The notes beneath the pieces are model-generated. The model searched no databases, was not told where the DNA came from, and was given only the letters and a program-made list of their open reading frames with translations. A stretch of DNA of 64,000 nt, taken from Coraliomargarita sp. (lineage in GTDB: Bacteria; Verrucomicrobiota; Verrucomicrobiia; Opitutales; Coraliomargaritaceae). A program made the position numbers and the translations under genes. Shown one piece after another: positions 9,575 to 48,900 of the stretch. How positions within the stretch are numbered: the stretch's first letter is position 1; each line of letters opens with the position of its first letter. The stretch covers positions 2,208,001 to 2,272,000 of the forward strand of contig OZ244160.1 of NCBI GenBank assembly GCA_965216325.1, read 5' to 3'.

Positions 9575-9928
<354 letters not shown>

Positions 9929-16282: not shown

Positions 16283-16446
16283 GCAGGCCATCTTGCTCCT
16301 ACTCAAAATGGCGGAGGGGATTACGATTAAGAGTAGGATTATGATTAAGATGTGAGTGCAGGCGCATCTGCGCTACACCTTGAATTGTTTACCTGAATTT
16401 TTTTCAAAAAGGTGGAACTCTTCTTGGGGAGTGCTGACTACCATAG

Positions 16447-16548
16447 CATCAACCGTGGGTTGAATCATTTTTTCATATGAGTTAGTTAGGGTAACTAAGG
16501 TTAGCAGTGAGCCTCGTCTTCAATAGGAGTCGGGGCTCTTTGTTTTTT
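16447..16548 (+). ncRNA. Candidate sRNA, GUUAG family copy 1
   Basis: GGAAC-N17-GACTA upstream, 5' hairpin TCAACC/GGTTGA, GTTAGTTAGGGT core, AAUA-loop terminator with U-tract; no ORF. Confidence 0.6.
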
Positions 16549-16662
16549 GTGAGCTCGCTTGATGGTTGGCGGTCAATGCATAGCGCTTGTGGGCTGGATG
16601 TATGTCCTTCGAGTTTGTGTAGAATTTTTGGAACTCTTTTGCTGGGGCGCTGACTACCGTCG

Positions 16663-16764
16663 TATCAACCGTGGGTTGAATCATTTTTTCATATGAGTTA
16701 GTTAGGGTAACTAAGGTTAGCAGTGAGCCCCGTCTTCAATAGGAGTCGGGGCTCTTTGTTTTTT
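16663..16764 (+). ncRNA. Candidate sRNA, GUUAG family copy 2
   Basis: Same architecture as copy 1. Confidence 0.6.
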
Positions 16765-16830
16765 ATGAGCTCGCTTGATGGTTGGCGGTCAATGCATAGC
16801 GCTTGTGGGCTGGATGTTGGGCTTCTATGT

Positions 16831-17210: not shown

Positions 17211-17879
17211 CTATAGGCGCTTGAGGTATTTTTTATCGTTCTTGTCGATGAAGAGCACGCGCTTGTCTTGGATGATATAAACTTTAAGTCCAAGGCTGTA
17301 GTTGACGGTGTCACCCACGCTGTAGGCGTCGTCGTTGAGCAGGACTTTACTTTCGGTGCCTGAGAGGCGCACGCCGGAGATGCTGACCTTGCTGAGCCAG
17401 TCGATGATTTTTGGGTCGGGCTGGGCGGCGGCTTTGCGTGCAGCTTCCTCTTCGGCTGCTTTCTTGGCGGCGGCTGCGGCGAGTTCGGCTTCTCGTTGGC
17501 GTGCCGCTTCTGCCTCTGCCGCTTCACGTGCGCGCTGGAGTTCAGCGAGCACCTTGGGCGATTCTGCGGGGGTGAGTGGTGCGCTGATGGTTGCTGCGGG
17601 TTCTGCGGGTGCGCTCTCTTGTGGCTTGGCTTGCGCGGTGTTGATTGCTGGTGCCGGTTCGGCAATGGGCTCTTCCTTGAGTAGCATGACCGCAAGGACG
17701 GCGATCAGTCCGAGCATGACGGCGAAAGCCGCGACGAGTCCAAGTGTCAGTCCCATGTTCGGGCCTCGCTTAGGGCTGGGCGGTGTTGAAATGGTGTTGC
17801 TGCCGGAAAGCGATGGTGATGAGGGCGCACTGCTGCGGTCGCGTTGGGCCTTTTTGAGGGCTTGGTTGATCAGGCTCAT
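17211..17879 (-). CDS. GspB/ExeB-like membrane-anchored protein
   Basis: [12 protein letters not shown] start, TM helix, Pro/Ala linker, C-terminal VLLN...VGD domain; follows an ExeA-like ATPase. Confidence 0.8.

Positions 17880-17998: not shown

Positions 17999-18000
<2 letters not shown>
17937..18000. repeat. Degenerate GTAG REP doublet
   Basis: GAGTAGCA...CACAGGCGGGGCGCCTGTGCTACTC. Confidence 0.6.
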
Positions 18001-18823
<823 letters not shown>

Positions 18824-25431: not shown

Positions 25432-26526
25432 ATGAAAAACAAAATCGCACTCGCATCCGCTTTCGTAGCGGCTTCCGGTCTCGCGACAGCGGAAATCGTC
25501 ATCAACGATTTCCTCTCTTTCGAAGGCTTCATCGATATGTCCTACAGCCACACTGACGTTGACAGTGACAACGTTGCTGTTGCTTCCGGTTCTGATAACA
25601 GCTTCGACATCGATCAGGTTGAAATCGACTGGTTGTTCGATTTCGACACAGTAACTGCTCAAATCGACCTCGCATACGAAGGTTCCGATGGTGATCAGGA
25701 AACTGCTGTTGAGCAGGCATTCGCTACTTACCACTTCGACAACGGTGGTGCGATCACAGCTGGTCGTTTCGCTTCCATGCTTGGTTTTGAAGCATTCGAG
25801 CCAACTGGTCTTTACCAGTTCTCCTTCGCTTACGACTACAGCATCCTTCCTGGTTATGCTCAAGGTGTGAAGTTCACCCACGAAAGCGACAACACTTTCT
25901 TCGGTATCTCCCTTCTTGATAGCTACACTGAGCGTTCCGACGATGATCCTTACAATGGTCGTCTTGGTGGCTCTGATGATTCCGACTGGGCTGTTGAAAT
26001 TGCGGGTGCCTACTACATGGACAATGGTCTGTCCTTCTTCCTGGGTGGTTACTATGAAGATACTGAAGGTCCATCTGTTGACGGTTCTGTTTACGCGATC
26101 AATGGTTATGTAACTTACGAAACAGGTGCATGGATTTTCGCAGCTGAGCTCAACTACGGTGACTCTGAAGTTGGCGCATACGGTCTTTCTGCTGAAGAAG
26201 GCACTCTGTATGATGGGTTCTCCATCTTCAGTGACGACGAAGAAGCGCTCTCTGGTTTGCTCATGGCTAACTACGCTTACAGCGACCAAGGCTCCATCAC
26301 TGCTCGTTTCAGCTATGAAGAACGCACTCTTGACGACACTGCTTTCGGTGACGCAGACGCAGAGCAATACAAGCTGACGCTTGCACACGGCTGGGCATTC
26401 ACAGACAACCTCTCCCTCGTAACTGAAATCAGCTATGTTGATGGTGAAGTTGACCTTGACGGTGGTCTTGAGGACGAAGACTTCGATAGCCTTACTGGTG
26501 CAATCGAAGTTATCTTCGCATTCTAA
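25432..26526 (+). CDS. Outer-membrane beta-barrel porin, paralog 1
   Basis: Signal peptide, amphipathic beta pattern, C-terminal Phe (IFAF), strongly biased codons. Confidence 0.88.
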   Translation: MKNKIALASAFVAASGLATAEIVINDFLSFEGFIDMSYSHTDVDSDNVAVASGSDNSFDIDQVEIDWLFDFDTVTAQIDLAYEGSDGDQETAVEQAFATYHFDNGGAITAGRFASMLGFEAFEPTGLYQFSFAYDYSILPGYAQGVKFTHESDNTFFGISLLDSYTERSDDDPYNGRLGGSDDSDWAVEIAGAYYMDNGLSFFLGGYYEDTEGPSVDGSVYAINGYVTYETGAWIFAAELNYGDSEVGAYGLSAEEGTLYDGFSIFSDDEEALSGLLMANYAYSDQGSITARFSYEERTLDDTAFGDADAEQYKLTLAHGWAFTDNLSLVTEISYVDGEVDLDGGLEDEDFDSLTGAIEVIFAF

Positions 26527-26586: not shown

Positions 26587-26716
26587 GTGTGTAAACAAGC
26601 GTTCACTTGCCTGTTGTATAAAAAGCTTCACATTTTAACGTAATTTGGTCACTTTTGATCGTGGAAATAGGCGCTTGTACTTATTTTCGACAAACAAAAA
26701 CAAATACAGCTACACT

Positions 26717-27808
26717 ATGAAAAACAAAATCGCACTAGCATCCGCTTTTGTAGCGGCTTCCGGCCTCGCGACTGCGGAAATCGTAATCAACGATTTCCTC
26801 TCTTTCGAAGGCTTCATCGATATGTCTTACAGCCACACTGATGTAGATTCTGATATCAGCATCCTTGACGGTTCTGACAACAGCTTCGACATCGACCAGG
26901 TTGAAATCGACTGGTTGTTCGACTTCGACACAGTAACTGCACAGATCGACCTTGCATACGAAGGTTCTGATGGTGACCAAGAAACTGCTGTTGAGCAGGC
27001 ATTCGCAACTTACCACTTCGACAATGGTGGCGCGATCACAGCTGGTCGTTTCGCTTCCATGCTCGGTTTTGAAGCTTTCGAGCCAACTGGTCTCTACCAG
27101 TTCTCCTTTGCTTACGACATGAGCATCCTTCCAGGCTATGCACAAGGTGTGAAGTTCACTCACGAGTCTGACAACACATTCTTCGGTCTCTCTCTTCTCG
27201 ACAGCTATGTTGAGCGTGATCTGGACGATCCTTACAATGGTCGTCTTGGTGGTTCTGATGACTCCAGCTATGCATTTGAAATTGCTGGTGCATACTACAT
27301 GGACAATGGCCTTGGCTTCTTCCTTGGCGGTTACTACGAAGACATCGATGGTGACGGAGTAACTTCTGCTGATGGTGACAACTATGCAATCAATGCATAC
27401 GTGACCTTCGAAACTGGTGCTTGGATCTTCGCAGCTGAGCTTAACTACGGTGAAACCGAAGCAAACGCTTATGGTGTCGACTACGGTGTTGATCCTGTCT
27501 TCGGTAACTTGGAAATCGTTGGCACTGACGACGAGGCTGTGTCTGGTCTTCTTATGGCTAACTACGCATATAGCGACAAGGGATCTATCACAGGTCGTAT
27601 CAGCTATGAGTCCTTCGATTATGACAATGCGTTCGACGACGAAATCGAGCAAATCAAGTTCACTATCGCGCACGGCTACGCGTTCACAGACAACCTCTCT
27701 TTGGTAACTGAAATCAGCTACTCTGAGGCAACTGTTGAGAACAACCTCGGCCTTGACGAAGACATCGACACCCTTCTCGGTGCTGTTGAGCTTATCTTCG
27801 CATTCTAA
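26717..27808 (+). CDS. Outer-membrane beta-barrel porin, paralog 2
   Basis: Identical N-terminus to paralog 1 (MKNKIALASAF...); C-terminal IFAF. Confidence 0.88.
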   Translation: MKNKIALASAFVAASGLATAEIVINDFLSFEGFIDMSYSHTDVDSDISILDGSDNSFDIDQVEIDWLFDFDTVTAQIDLAYEGSDGDQETAVEQAFATYHFDNGGAITAGRFASMLGFEAFEPTGLYQFSFAYDMSILPGYAQGVKFTHESDNTFFGLSLLDSYVERDLDDPYNGRLGGSDDSSYAFEIAGAYYMDNGLGFFLGGYYEDIDGDGVTSADGDNYAINAYVTFETGAWIFAAELNYGETEANAYGVDYGVDPVFGNLEIVGTDDEAVSGLLMANYAYSDKGSITGRISYESFDYDNAFDDEIEQIKFTIAHGYAFTDNLSLVTEISYSEATVENNLGLDEDIDTLLGAVELIFAF

Positions 27809-27867: not shown

Positions 27868-29781
27868 GTGCGCCCGGCAGGGCGCACTTACTCGACAGTG
27901 ATTATTAATGGAAATTGATGAAAGTCTGTTACTCGCCCGGCAAGGGGAAGAGTTAGCCGAAGGGCAACTGCGGCATCGCGAGGTGTTCGTGGGAAGGAAG
28001 CCTATGGCAAAGCACTGGCCTGACGAACAGGAATCGCATAAGAGGCGTTTGCGTTGGATGAGGAGGCACAGAACTTCAAAGTCCGAAACTTGCCCGGAAA
28101 GCGCAGGCGTATATGCGGCAGGCATAAGTGTGACGGTAAGTGCGCATTACCCGGGGAGGTCTCTGAACATGCTACTGGCTACCAGTGTCGCGAGGCACTG
28201 GGATGTGTTTAGAGAAGTCAGCCGAGATCATAGTAGCCTGCACAGGTCGCGGGCGAAGGATCGAACCGAAGAACGACAACAAGGACTGAGACCATGAGCG
28301 AGAGCAGGGAAGCAGAAGCTGGCGGCACCACCCGTCAGACCCGCGTGGAAGGAACCGGACGGCATCTGGGGCGAGTCCATGCGGGCGCATCAAGCGCGCC
28401 ATCGGCCTTGGAGAACCGAGTTGCTCACCAATACGACCTGATTCGACAGGTGACCGAGCGCGGCAATATCAAAGCCGCGTGGAAGAAAGTGCGCCGCAAC
28501 GGCGGCAGAGCGGGCATCGACGAGCGCGACATGGAAGCCAGCCTGGCGTATCTAAATGCGCACTGGGAGCAGATCGAATCGCAGTTGCTGACCGGGAGGT
28601 ATCGTCCCCCGGCAGTGCTGCGTCTGGAGATCAAAAAGCCGGGCGGGGGCACCCGCAAGCTGGGCGTTCCCACGATCGTTGACCGTGTGCTGCAACAAGC
28701 GGCCTTGCAGATACTCAGCCCGATCTTCGACCCCCTGTTCAGCGAACACAGCTACGGGTTCCGCCCCGGACGCAGCGCAGGACAAGCGGTCGAACAGGCG
28801 CAAAAGTATCAGCACGAAGGCAAGAACTGGGTCGTGGACATGGACTTGAAGGCCTTCTTCGACGAAGTGAACCACGACCTGCTGATGGCGCGGGTGCGCC
28901 GTCATGTGAAAGACAAAGCCATGCTCAAACTGATCCGCTCCTGGCTTAAAGCTGGAGTGATGATCGGCGGGCTGGTTCAACCCATGGAGAAAGGCACGCC
29001 TCAGGGTGGGCCGCTCTCTCCACTGCTGTCCAACATCATGTTGGACGATCTGGATAAGGAACTGGAGAAGCGCGGCCATAGCTTCTGCCGCTACGCGGAC
29101 GACTGTAACATTTACGTCGCCACGCAGCGCAGCGGCGAGCGTGTGCTCGCTTCGATCACGAACTATTTGGAGACCAAACTGAAGCTGAAGGTCAACCACC
29201 TCAAAAGCGCGGTGGATCGTCCGAGCCGCCGGATCTTCCTCGGCTACAGCTTCACTGGGGGCAAGCATAGCCGCATTCGCGTGCCCAAACAGACGACTCA
29301 AAAGATGAAGTCCAAGCTGCGGAAACTCTGCCGCAAAGGGCGCGGGCGCAACCTGCGCCGCTTCATCGCTGAGACGCTCAATCCAGTGCTACGCGGCTGG
29401 ACGAACTACTTCCGCCTGAGTCAGACGAAAACCTTCGCCGGGGAACTGGACGAATGGTTGCGACATCGCTTGCGGTGCATCCTCTGGCGACAGTGGAAAC
29501 GTCCCCACACCCGCTACAGGAAGCTGGTGCAGCTTGGGCTCAGCCCCGAATGTGCCCGCAAAAGCAGCTACAACGGACGCGGGGCGTGGTTTAACAGCGG
29601 AGCCTCTCACATGAACCAAGCCCTCCCACGCAAAGCCTTCACGCAAATGAAGCTCCTATCTGTCTATGATTTGCTCGAATTGATGAGAGCCGAAATCCTT
29701 CTTCGGAACCGCCGTGATACGTGAACCGTACGTCCGGTGGTGTGAGAGCTTGGAGCGGGCAACCGCTCCCGGCTACTCGAT
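27868..29781 (+). mobile_element. Group II intron, class IIC
   Basis: 5' GTGCGCCCGGC directly after a terminator; D5 GAACCGCCGTGATACGTGAACCGTACGTCCGGTGGTGT with CGC triad; D6 ending CTACTCGAT. Confidence 0.93.
28294..29724 (+). CDS. ltrA: Group II intron reverse transcriptase/maturase (no endonuclease domain)
   Basis: R.LGVPT..DR, SYGFRPGRS, DLKAFFD, GTPQGGPLSPLL, RYADD, maturase GWTNYF. Confidence 0.96.
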   Translation: MSESREAEAGGTTRQTRVEGTGRHLGRVHAGASSAPSALENRVAHQYDLIRQVTERGNIKAAWKKVRRNGGRAGIDERDMEASLAYLNAHWEQIESQLLTGRYRPPAVLRLEIKKPGGGTRKLGVPTIVDRVLQQAALQILSPIFDPLFSEHSYGFRPGRSAGQAVEQAQKYQHEGKNWVVDMDLKAFFDEVNHDLLMARVRRHVKDKAMLKLIRSWLKAGVMIGGLVQPMEKGTPQGGPLSPLLSNIMLDDLDKELEKRGHSFCRYADDCNIYVATQRSGERVLASITNYLETKLKLKVNHLKSAVDRPSRRIFLGYSFTGGKHSRIRVPKQTTQKMKSKLRKLCRKGRGRNLRRFIAETLNPVLRGWTNYFRLSQTKTFAGELDEWLRHRLRCILWRQWKRPHTRYRKLVQLGLSPECARKSSYNGRGAWFNSGASHMNQALPRKAFTQMKLLSVYDLLELMRAEILLRNRRDT

Positions 29782-36847: not shown

Positions 36848-36920
<73 letters not shown>

Positions 36921-36926
36921 GAAACC

Positions 36927-37039
<113 letters not shown>

Positions 37040-47214: not shown

Positions 47215-47607
47215 TTACAGTGCGTCGCGAATCGCCGCGTAGATTTGCTGGGACTCTGCGAGGCTGCCGAGCTTGCCGACACGGATACGGATTTCGGTTT
47301 GGCCCTCTGCGAGCTGCTTGAGGCGAATGGTTACCTTCTCGTCGCCAACTTTACGGGCGTAAATCGTGATGGAAGATTCCTTGTGGAGCTCGCCGGTTCG
47401 ATAGTAACCGAGGTCGTCGATCTCTTTAATCGCAGTGCGGAATACGTTCGATGCTTGGCCGTCAACTGGGCCGCGGAAGTAACCTGCTTGATAGGTCGCG
47501 GTTTGTTCGAGTCCGGATTGCGGGTCGATTGCGACAGATGTTTGGCAGCCGGTGAAAACCACCGTGAGGAGCGCGAAGAATGTGACGATTGTTGCTTTTA
47601 CTTTCAT
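47215..47607 (-). CDS. Lipoprotein (DUF3568-like)
   Basis: Lipobox FTGC; T.IRIRVG..G...S..IY motif. Confidence 0.8.
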
Positions 47608-47646
47608 AGTTAGTGGCATTTAGAAACGATTTCTCACAAAGTGCAA

Positions 47647-48606
47647 TCAGAAGCTTTTATGATAAGTCACTTCGTTGCGGTCTTTGAACACCAGTTTGCC
47701 CTCTTGAGTTCCAAGGAAGATCAGACCTGTGCTTGAGTCGACTACATCCCCGATTCGGAAGCTGTCATTGTTGAGCATGACGCGCGCGTTGGCACCTGTG
47801 CGGACCATGCCAATCTGGGCGGATGACAGGAAGCCTGACACACTTGTGCGCAAGTCTCCTGTTGGTGCGGTCGGTTCCGGAGGAGTGCTCACTTTACTTT
47901 CAGTGATTGCGTTCTCGGGAGCATCATCAGCATCGGGAGCATGGGGAGTTGCCGGTTCAGCTGACTCGCCGGTGATCGCTTCGATGTCCGCAACGGGAAC
48001 CTTGTCGATATTGGCCTTGGCGTGCTCAATTGGATTCTTCGGTTGTTCAGGCGTCTCAGTTGCTGTCTGTTGGCTCGTTTCTGGGGCCGCTTCGGCTTGC
48101 ATAAACATTTCCCAGACCGCATAGCCGCCTCCGCCGAGAATCAGCATCAGGACGATGATCAATGCGATACTGGTGCCTACACTGCTACGTGCTTTAGTGG
48201 CTTCCGGTGCTGGCGCGGATGTGGCCTTGAGGCTCTCTTGCAAGTGTTGTTCGACGCCTGCTGGAGGGCGTTCGTCGAGTCGATTCTGTAGTCCGGGCGC
48301 GAGTTCTTGAGTAGGCTTCGTGCTGGGCGCTTTCGGGGCTGGTGGATTTTTGGGGAGTGGCGGCGTGGCTTTGGGGGCCGCTTCCTCGGGCTCAGGGACC
48401 GGAGTTGGAGACGAAATTTCGTTGGCCTTGATACTGTTCTCCTCGATCGGCTTCTTGGGAACTAGTTTGGGCAGTGGCTCGGGTGTGCTTGGCTCGGTTT
48501 TAAGGGGAGGAGTCAACTGAGCTTTGGGTTCATCTGAAGATTCCTTGGTTTGGCTCGGGCGCTGAAGTTTGAGCTTTGGCGGCTTATTGGCAGGGTCGTC
48601 ACTCAT
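47647..48606 (-). CDS. Pro-rich membrane protein with a GspB-like C-terminal domain (paralog of 17211-17879)
   Basis: C-terminal IGMVR.G...RVMLN...IGD.V...GL...VF.D.N...Y.K aligns by eye with the 17211 protein. Confidence 0.75.
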   Translation of the reverse strand: MSDDPANKPPKLKLQRPSQTKESSDEPKAQLTPPLKTEPSTPEPLPKLVPKKPIEENSIKANEISSPTPVPEPEEAAPKATPPLPKNPPAPKAPSTKPTQELAPGLQNRLDERPPAGVEQHLQESLKATSAPAPEATKARSSVGTSIALIIVLMLILGGGGYAVWEMFMQAEAAPETSQQTATETPEQPKNPIEHAKANIDKVPVADIEAITGESAEPATPHAPDADDAPENAITESKVSTPPEPTAPTGDLRTSVSGFLSSAQIGMVRTGANARVMLNNDSFRIGDVVDSSTGLIFLGTQEGKLVFKDRNEVTYHKSF

Positions 48607-48715
48607 AGATAATTGTGGCGAACCCTAAGCGTTGCTTAACTGCAGGCAAACTGAAATCCCCTAGTGTAGGCTGATTTAATAGCCTCTTTACAGGTTTATG
48701 GGCCAAATTGGGGCA

Positions 48716-48805
48716 CAATAAAGCCCGCCTCCCTATTGGAAGACGGGCTACTGCTAACCTTATTAACCCTAACTAACATACAGTGAATACTCACTGAACA
48801 TTGAA
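48716..48805 (-). ncRNA. Candidate sRNA, GUUAG family copy 3
   Basis: Minus strand reads GTTAGTTAGGGTTAATAAGGTTAGCAGTAGCCCGTCTTCC-AATA-GGGAGGCGGGCTTT; own 5' hairpin CAGTGA/TCACTG; GGAAC at 48833-48829. Confidence 0.6.
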
Positions 48806-48900
48806 TAAGAGTATATAAATCGGGCTTTGTTCCTGAGGATTACAGAAAAAATCACTTTTTTTGAAGCGACAGCTACAATTAGCACTGTTTGCATGCTATC

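Follow-up and report, generated by a model that had tools for sequence, protein, structure and literature searches.

The minus strand between the divergent gene ribE and a co-oriented gene pair, consisting of p319 and a DUF3568 lipoprotein gene, carries a compact element that we read as the gene of a small RNA (sRNA). The locus (48716-48833) is part of a stretch of 64,000 nucleotides (nt) from Coraliomargarita sp. (contig OZ244160.1, positions 2,208,001 to 2,272,000), which was analyzed at its full length and is referred to as the window. Two related copies of the element, copies 1 and 2, are located elsewhere in the window, and the one beside ribE is thus called copy 3.

Read on the minus strand, copy 3 begins with a T-rich run and the pentamer GGAAC, followed by a -10-like element, a 5' hairpin, a GU-rich core and a terminator stem-loop (Table 1). 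A preliminary description had listed GGAAC, the 5' hairpin, the core and a 12-pair hairpin with AAUA loop, and all of these parts are present on this strand. Its N5 spacer between the two 12-mers of the core has to be corrected to 4 nt (TAAT), as the N5 pattern returns no match, even with three mismatches. According to a terminator scan, eight of the 12 stem pairs are G-C, while two are G-U by our own reading. The predicted minus-strand fold has a free energy of -31.3 kcal/mol (z -4.74) and none of 200 shuffles is as stable, whereas the plus strand reaches -22.1 kcal/mol and has mismatches at the positions of the G-U pairs. Since these pairs make the helix better on the minus strand, an RNA of this strand is favored. 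Both the minimum-energy and the centroid fold contain the 5' hairpin and the terminator only, which leaves the core mostly unpaired. Transcription is predicted to start near 48800, a few bases upstream of the 5' hairpin, and copy 3 would then constitute a self-contained gene for an RNA of roughly 85 nt.

Table 1. Features of copy 3, the two further copies and the genes downstream of copy 3 (window coordinates)
Feature	Position	Strand	Basis or remark
GGAAC (-35-like element of an ECF-type promoter), after a T-rich run	48829..48833	-	sequence reading
CTCTTA (-10-like element, 17 nt past GGAAC)	48806..48811	-	putative function
5' hairpin CAGTGA-GTAT-TCACTG, 6 base pairs, then TAT before the core	48781..48796	-	fold and sequence
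GU-rich core, 28 nt, putative seed, GTTAGTTAGGGTTAATAAGGTTAGCAGT	48750..48777	-	exact pattern searches, near-invariance over the family
Terminator stem-loop AGCCCGTCTTCC / AATA / GGGAGGCGGGCT, 12 pairs	48722..48749	-	terminator scan and fold
U-rich tail TTATTGTG	48714..48721	-	sequence reading
Copy 1 of the paralogue lineage (core 16481-16508)	16413..16601	+	downstream of amt and glnB
Copy 2 (core 16697-16724)	16629..16817	+	tandem repeat of copy 1
p319	47647..48606	-	no Pfam family; single-pass membrane protein with Pro-rich N-terminus (own reading)
DUF3568 lipoprotein gene, the most constant neighbor of the RNA	47215..47619	-	PF12092, E 3.8e-15
TTTGCCT between the RNA terminator and p319	48644..48650	-	conserved motif, by eye

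Each of the two core 12-mers has three exact sites in the window, i. e. 16481/16497 (+), 16697/16713 (+) and 48766/48750 (-). A genome-wide search, as proposed in the preliminary description, detected the joined pattern with the corrected N4 spacer exactly three times in the genome (a single contig of 3.06 Mb, 99.98% complete), and a reversed control not at all. Copies 1 and 2 form a head-to-tail tandem repeat with a period of 216 nt and 94% identity, each with promoter and terminator, and are situated 3' of the genes for an ammonium transporter (amt) and a P-II protein (glnB). Within their core, UUAGUUA-GGG-UAACUAA is able to form a 7-base-pair hairpin according to the fold. Two sister genomes, G007 and G008 (loci L006 and L015), have just one copy of this amt-glnB-linked paralogue, and the tandem pair is therefore a duplication private to this genome. 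Copies 1 and 2 represent a paralogous lineage at the level of the genus, which is located downstream of amt-glnB. Copy 3 had been regarded as the diverged copy. The polarity is in fact reversed, because it is copy 3 that has the family-consensus core GGGTTAATAAGG and the ancestral syntenic position ahead of p319 and DUF3568, which makes it the ancestral type.

Conservation and distribution of the element

The segment GAGTTAGTTAGGGTTAAT(A/T)AGGTTAG is almost invariant in 35 distinct sequences from many genera. In the terminator, sequence changes preserve the structure, in line with the preliminary description: in an alignment that had been fitted to a covariance model, 97.3% of the cells are paired and nine of the 12 pairs change on both sides. 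These values are matched by none of 500 shuffles, and the paired fraction drops to 41-65% when the 3' partner is slid. An independent MAFFT/RNAalifold run yielded the same helix with eight of 12 compensatory pairs. The 5' hairpin is more variable and abuts the core in 18 of the 35 distinct members vs 10.7% of shuffles. Its arms are usually CACTGA/TCAGTG, with the variants TCACTGG/CCAGTGA, GTTGAT/ATCAAT and CACTT/AAGTG, and they are swapped in the lineage of copy 3. As several lineages have no such hairpin, it is frequent rather than obligatory.

These data also bear on the possibility that the locus is a DNA-level element without any RNA gene, i. e. a regulator site combined with the terminator of a neighboring gene, or a dispersed repeat. 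The location of copy 3 in a divergent intergenic region beside ribE would agree with such an element, as would the status of the RNA as a prediction from sequence. Yet, the G-U pairs render the hairpin strand-specific, and the compensatory changes maintain an RNA helix. Promoter, core and terminator moreover occur in the same order and orientation in 33 of 33 copies, there are only one to four copies per genome, and the hairpin of copy 3 terminates no known gene, because the upstream ribE is divergent. We regard a DNA-level element as very improbable. A small coding gene was considered as well. Copy 3 contains an ATG-led frame of 27 codons (own reading), but the ATG is missing or placed before TAG in other members; the bases ahead of the core read GTG AGT TAG or ATG AGT TAG in most of them, no reading frame is conserved, and this candidate was rejected.

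No gathering-level match to Rfam 15 was obtained at either sRNA locus. The best sub-threshold matches, among them FopS, GcvB and FuFi-1, scored 13.8-18.8 bits with E-values of 0.27-9, which corresponds to chance level. When up to three mismatches are allowed, the core is detected in 10 out of 101 genomes from the family to which the window belongs. An exact scan with RTTARTTAGGGTNNNNWAGGTTAG, a 24-nt core pattern, across 185,579 species genomes (one genome per species) returned 17 loci, 16 of which are found in records titled Coraliomargarita, Coraliomargaritaceae, Puniceicoccaceae, Opitutales, Opitutia or Verrucomicrobiota. The seventeenth, from Aquirufa, was rejected as a chance match, because neither GGAAC nor a terminator is seen in its flanks (110 nt upstream, 70 nt downstream).

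A covariance model built from 19 copies (with a shortened calibration, so that E-values are rough) detects the RNA in 70 of the 101 family genomes, 47 of the 62 high-quality genomes and 15 of 20 genera, the positive genomes being titled Coraliomargarita, Coraliomargaritaceae, Puniceicoccaceae or Opitutales. In an even sample of the order, all six genomes of the same family and the genome of the window were positive, while none of 144 genomes from 40 other families was (E <= 1e-5). The recurrence of core, terminator and upstream GGAAC across these genera upholds the earlier proposal that core and architecture are under selection. Likewise, copy 3 is not just a recent duplication, as had been argued, given flanks that are unrelated to the tandem locus and a terminator stem with compensatory changes. 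In the literature as far as it was available in full text, no described regulatory small RNA was found for Opitutales or Coraliomargarita. Taken together, the RNA is restricted to one family of the Opitutales (Verrucomicrobiota). The RNA family and its seed are new, and the kind of element is known.

A weak fourth match of the model in the genome (G000:C1:865436-865540 (+), locus L064 1037-1141, 31.5 bits) has no GUUAG core and was not counted. It consists of a G-rich stretch, UUAGUGGUUUGGGUGAUUAGGGGAUAAUGAG, and a terminator at an apparent gene end and is probably unrelated.

Promoter and candidate sigma factor

Each of the 33 distinct copies for which the upstream sequence is long enough has GGAAC 47-67 nt ahead of the core, whereas about 4% would be expected by chance. 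Across the family, a T-rich run precedes the pentamer, and TTGGAAaTTTTC is often present about 20 nt farther 5'. Approximately 17 nt past GGAAC, the copies carry tGTTC(T/C)TA, GTCTnnA or, in the amt-linked paralogue, ctGACTMC. This layout resembles a promoter recognized by an extracytoplasmic function (ECF) sigma factor. Among the eight sigma-70-family genes of the genome, one encodes an ECF sigma factor of 200 amino acids (G000:2063954-2064556), whose best NCBIfam matches, the SigW and RpoE models, do not reach the respective cut-offs. Its gene is preceded by ttttgctGGAACaaatctaaggtttcaacgATCTAG 49 nt 5' of the start codon. Orthologues are encoded in 85 of the 101 family genomes (E <= 1e-71; at least 69% identity in the alignments listed), and GGAAC-N17-G(A/T)TCTA is located ahead of the sigma gene in 29 of 29 fetched loci with upstream sequence (locus L075 is cut off). 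By resemblance of sequence, the promoters of the RNA and of the sigma gene hence both fit the ECF/sigmaE type.

The -10 region was assessed with a matrix derived from the sigma promoters only. Fourteen of 33 sRNA promoters score above the 95th percentile of the 4706 GGAAC sites in the genome, with a median at the 89th. Copy 3 had been described as having the weaker -10 match of the three copies. Measured by this ECF-type yardstick, the opposite applies, since copy 3 is placed at the 98.5th percentile and copies 1 and 2, which do not match the sigma-type -10, at the 53rd-66th. When 52 promoters, all from other genomes, served to train a full matrix, the sigma promoter ranked first and copy 3 second of the 4706 sites; because the training set held orthologues of both promoters, this ranking reflects conservation and not independent discovery. 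A hand count revealed the RNA in 67 of the 85 genomes with a sigma orthologue vs 3 of the 16 without, the three exceptions being 83-92% complete. As eight of the 16 sigma-less genomes belong to one small-genome genus, this co-occurrence lends weak support to a functional link. An ECF-type promoter of the RNA is thus well supported by the sequence comparisons, and the RNA probably depends on the ECF sigma factor, which would in that case also drive its own gene from the same kind of promoter.

Other promoter classes were considered, too. A scan for the sigma-70 consensus gave no promoter-like site at either sRNA locus. Upon inspection, TGGAAC-N5-TTG of copies 1 and 2 was discarded as a sigma-54 promoter, because neither the GG-N10-GC spacing nor TTGC is kept among copy 1, copy 2, L006 and L015. 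The next-best sites of the ECF matrix after the sigma gene and copy 3 lie 47 nt before an open reading frame for 107 amino acids without family (G000:C1:1893172 (-)) and 37 nt before the gene of an FHA-domain protein (G000:C1:2284296 (+)). These are possible further regulon members.

Neighboring genes and independence of the RNA

While ribE adjoins the RNA within the genus only, the genes on its other side are more constant. In tblastn searches, homologues of p319 and/or the DUF3568 protein were encoded just 3' of the RNA in most fetched loci of other genera. By hand comparison of coordinates, the RNA lies on the same strand as DUF3568 and at most 2 kb upstream of it in 47 of the 70 positive genomes; the other 23 comprise six contig ends, four genomes of genus g19, three of genus g10, seven weak matches in g15 and three others. 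In the genera g9 and g20 and in part of g18, the gap between RNA and DUF3568 is just 44-450 nt with no p319 in between. For p319 itself, a protein atlas offered weak leads to GspB/GspC-like clusters (0.86-0.87).

Such a constant, co-oriented partner is what the main rival to an independent sRNA would predict, namely a cis-acting 5' leader in which the ECF-type promoter, the GUUAG segment and the hairpin form an attenuator of p319/DUF3568. A factor binding to the GUUAG segment would then control read-through of a weak terminator. Besides the synteny and the short gaps, this proposal is consistent with the U-tract 3' of the stem in copy 3, which is weak and interrupted, and with the paralogue in G006, G007 and G008, which is followed within about 70-90 nt past the core end by the gene of a membrane-anchored protein. 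It is difficult to reconcile with copies 1 and 2 and the g10 copies, which have no co-oriented gene start within 385-700 nt, and with the g19 copies, which reside in another context. By inspection, there is moreover no upstream C-rich partner for the 5' arm of the terminator and hence no visible antiterminator, and DUF3568 is present in 95 of the 101 genomes, including genera without the RNA. A conserved promoter-like element, TTTGCCT-N17-nAnTnn, is furthermore located between the terminator and p319. This element is represented in most genera by (A/G)GTTTGCCT about 45-60 nt 5' of the p319 start, followed in several by TGCA-nAnTnn about 17 nt on (by eye), and TTTGCCT may be the -35 element of a promoter of p319's own. 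Because the g10 and g19 copies as well as copies 1 and 2 are not beside DUF3568, and because of the promoter-like motif before p319, the RNA appears to be independent of the downstream gene. To a cis-acting leader, we assign a modest but real chance.

Both sRNA loci neighbor the same protein family, since a protein of 222 amino acids encoded convergently to copies 1 and 2 (17211-17879 (-)) has a C-terminal domain in common with p319 (about 35% identity, tblastn). Its gene adjoins that of an AAA_22 ATPase (17999-18823 (-)), which we read as ExeA-like.

Candidate targets and mode of action

We propose with moderate confidence that the element is a new, family-restricted, ECF-sigma-type and Hfq-independent trans-acting sRNA with a GU-rich seed. 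From the features described above, we infer that it is transcribed, that transcription depends on the ECF sigma factor and that the product acts in trans on target RNAs. In this proposal, the RpoE/SigW-like sigma factor would initiate transcription about 30 nt past GGAAC. In the resulting RNA, a short hairpin at the 5' end would be followed by the GU-rich segment GUUAGUUAGGGUUAAUAAGGUUAG, which is almost invariant and for the most part unpaired, and by an intrinsic terminator. Acting as a seed, this segment could recognize C/U/A-rich sites of other RNAs by base pairing, without the aid of Hfq. The likeliest class of such sites would be 5' leaders containing CUAAC, which are unusually common in this genome.

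The latter became apparent from leader statistics, which, as the target scans below, rest on crude gene calls made for this analysis. At positions -30 to -1 of predicted starts, CUAAC reaches a density of 2.09/kb vs approximately 0.5/kb in the outer bins (-100 to -60 and +30 to +100), which corresponds to a roughly 4-fold enrichment. Extended by one base, CUAACU and CUAACC amount to 0.81/kb and 0.63/kb, with outer bins about 6-fold lower. Neither the complement GUUAG (0.81/kb vs 0.22-0.49/kb) nor AGGAG, which is hardly enriched (1.17/kb vs about 0.9/kb), reaches a comparable excess. Repeats such as CUAACUUCUAACUUCUCCCUUCUAACUUC precede housekeeping genes, i. e. tsaD-, cysS-, sufB-, surE- and DAHP synthase-like genes as judged from our own reading of the N-termini. 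Examples of CUAAC(U/C) leaders, often with repeats, are located at G000:846244, 851576, 2864502, 2054840 and 185075. CUAAC may be a lineage-specific leader or enhancer motif, or else part of the promoters of messenger RNAs (mRNAs) with short leaders.

A precedent for such a pairing mode is GcvB, whose GU-rich seed binds to C/A-rich sequences that resemble enhancers and precede the start codons of many mRNAs. Similar to GcvB (RF00022), the RNA described here has a GU-rich single-stranded seed, and CUAAC-type leaders are enriched before start codons, so that pairing with C/U/A-rich leaders in the manner of GcvB is plausible by analogy. In contrast, promoter type and taxon differ, and membership in the GcvB family was rejected (13.8 bits vs a gathering score of 42). 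In terms of architecture, the closest parallels are the sigmaE-dependent sRNAs of Enterobacteria and Vibrio, i. e. RybB, MicA, MicL and VrrA. Common to them and the element are the short length, an own ECF-type promoter with GGAAC as -35, a conserved single-stranded seed in the 5' part, an intrinsic terminator and neighboring genes related to the envelope. Unlike these sRNAs, the element belongs to a different phylum and to a genome without Hfq, displays no similarity to them in sequence or Rfam, and has a GU-rich seed that is invariant over approximately 24 nt, with no porin mRNA target in sight. The FopS family of Bacteroides (RF04319) likewise consists of multi-copy paralogous sRNAs of similar length in an Hfq-less lineage. 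Among the weak Rfam alignments, that of FopS is the only full-length one (1-71 of 71); at 18.8 bits vs a gathering score of 56 (E 1.5), it is at chance level, and membership was rejected. Finally, the head-to-tail duplicate of copies 1 and 2, each with promoter and terminator, is reminiscent of PrrF1 and PrrF2 of Pseudomonas, which are tandemly duplicated sRNA genes. There is no sequence relation to these, however, and the present duplication is seen in a single genome only.

With respect to protein partners, no match to Hfq (PF17209) was obtained in the genome of the window, while control genomes did match, and the CsrA and ProQ families had no match in it, either. Membership in the Hfq-dependent sRNA class was thus rejected, as was a CsrB/RsmZ-type CsrA sponge: the core contains AGGG and AAGG, and no GGA is present in a hairpin loop.

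Instead of a seed, the repeated UUAG/UAGG units could represent sites for an RNA-binding protein that is titrated by, or assembled on, the RNA. Invariance of about 24 nt over 15 genera would be readily accounted for by such a protein-binding RNA, as would the lack of a conserved complementary target and the occurrence of the motif in sense orientation elsewhere, i. e. GUUAGUUAGGGU in the intergenic mRNA between rpsD and rpoA and GUUAG repeats after an Hsp20 gene. However, the genome has no Hfq, CsrA or ProQ match, there is no candidate protein partner, and the motif does not contain the GGA core that is typical of CsrA sites. In addition, a single additional 12-mer in a genome of 3 Mb is close to the chance expectation of about 0.4. 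Overall, we consider a protein-binding RNA distinctly unlikely.

Both sense-oriented occurrences are of interest in their own right. In the rpsD-rpoA spacer, GUUAGUUAGGGU is exact and in mRNA sense (G000:C1:2595206-2595217; loci L096, L100 and L102; genes assigned by our own reading of the flanking translations). It is identical in two sister genomes and hence in three genomes of the genus, in which the whole spacer is conserved. The second element directly follows the Hsp20 gene (PF00011) on its 3' side and consists of GUGAGUUAGUUAGGUUAGUUAGCUAGUUAGGGUUGAAGG, a hairpin and CUCUUAAUCUU (G000:C1:2694560-2694660 (+), locus L095 2550-2656). It scores 24.5 bits with the covariance model when filters are off, and 22.5 bits in a sister genome (L101). 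Either a fourth GUUAG element that has diverged or an element of the hsp20 3'-untranslated region may be present here. Its opposite strand would be the genome's best complement to the sRNA seed.

Several results weigh against the proposed trans-acting sRNA. Target prediction by k-mer, duplex-energy and run-based scans revealed a complementarity of the core to 5' regions that is only about 2-fold above a reversed-core control (22 vs 10 genes with a score of at least 20), and a similarly modest excess of duplexes at or below -20 kcal/mol (324 vs 152 genes). For coxB, ptsI, pilM, an FtsL-like gene, a transporter gene and a gene for 423 amino acids, no conserved complementarity was detected in up to five other genera. 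A perfect complement to the seed over 12 nt occurs just eight times outside sRNA genes in the 101 genomes without being conserved, and by a rough tally the reversed 12-mer control is several times more common. On the promoter side, the deviating -10 of copies 1 and 2 is joined by a plain genome scan for GGAAC-N17-19-TCYTA, which is not enriched (16 matches vs 18-26 for controls). The related genomes furthermore are non-independent samples, the transcript of copy 3 along with its ends and strand is a prediction, and both the interrupted U-tract and the position directly upstream of and co-oriented with DUF3568 (with or without p319), at gaps that in some cases measure just 44-140 nt, fit a cis-acting leader as well. 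Further scans were neutral in this respect: the top 20 target candidates are a functional mix with no common theme, and the start region of p319 is not complementary to the core (mean 12.6 vs 13.0 for the control). A conserved motif of the 16S rRNA 3' end was not detected in the genome as analyzed, in which two stretches of together 24 kb were masked; the rRNA operons may be located within these.

A more far-reaching, and in our view doubtful, variant is that the RNA acts as an "anti-leader", whose GUUAG-repeat segment pairs with the whole class of CUAAC leaders or mimics a ribosomal or protein site that reads such leaders. If so, the RNA would throttle translation of many mRNAs at once under envelope stress signaled via the ECF sigma factor, and the Hsp20-linked GUUAG element and GUUAGUUAGGGU between rpsD and rpoA would belong to the same code. 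Should the RNA turn out to be a conventional sRNA under ECF control, its main contribution would be a new phylum for an established principle. With its clear boundaries, family-wide distribution, predicted sigma factor, fixed partner in an envelope-lipoprotein operon and unusually long invariant seed, the candidate sRNA gene would provide a concrete entry point to post-transcriptional regulation in a phylum that is called Hfq-, ProQ- and CsrA-less. Independent of the RNA, the strand-specific CUAAC motif just 5' of start codons may inform how these bacteria start translation.

Further features of the window include two tandem paralogous genes (25432-26526 and 26714-27808 (+)) with a period of 1282 nt and 71-94% identity over the repeat segments. 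They encode signal-peptide proteins of about 364 amino acids ending in F, which we read as porin-type outer-membrane proteins. Their leaders are CA-rich, and those of the porin-like genes in the window contain no CUAAC site. Domains D1-D4 of a group II intron follow right 3' of the second porin-like gene (27972-28261 (+); RF02001, 129.7 bits; RF01998, 67.2 bits). A transfer-messenger RNA gene (163.4 bits) and two adjacent transfer RNA genes, located at 9582-9928 (-) and 36848-36999 (+), are ordinary.

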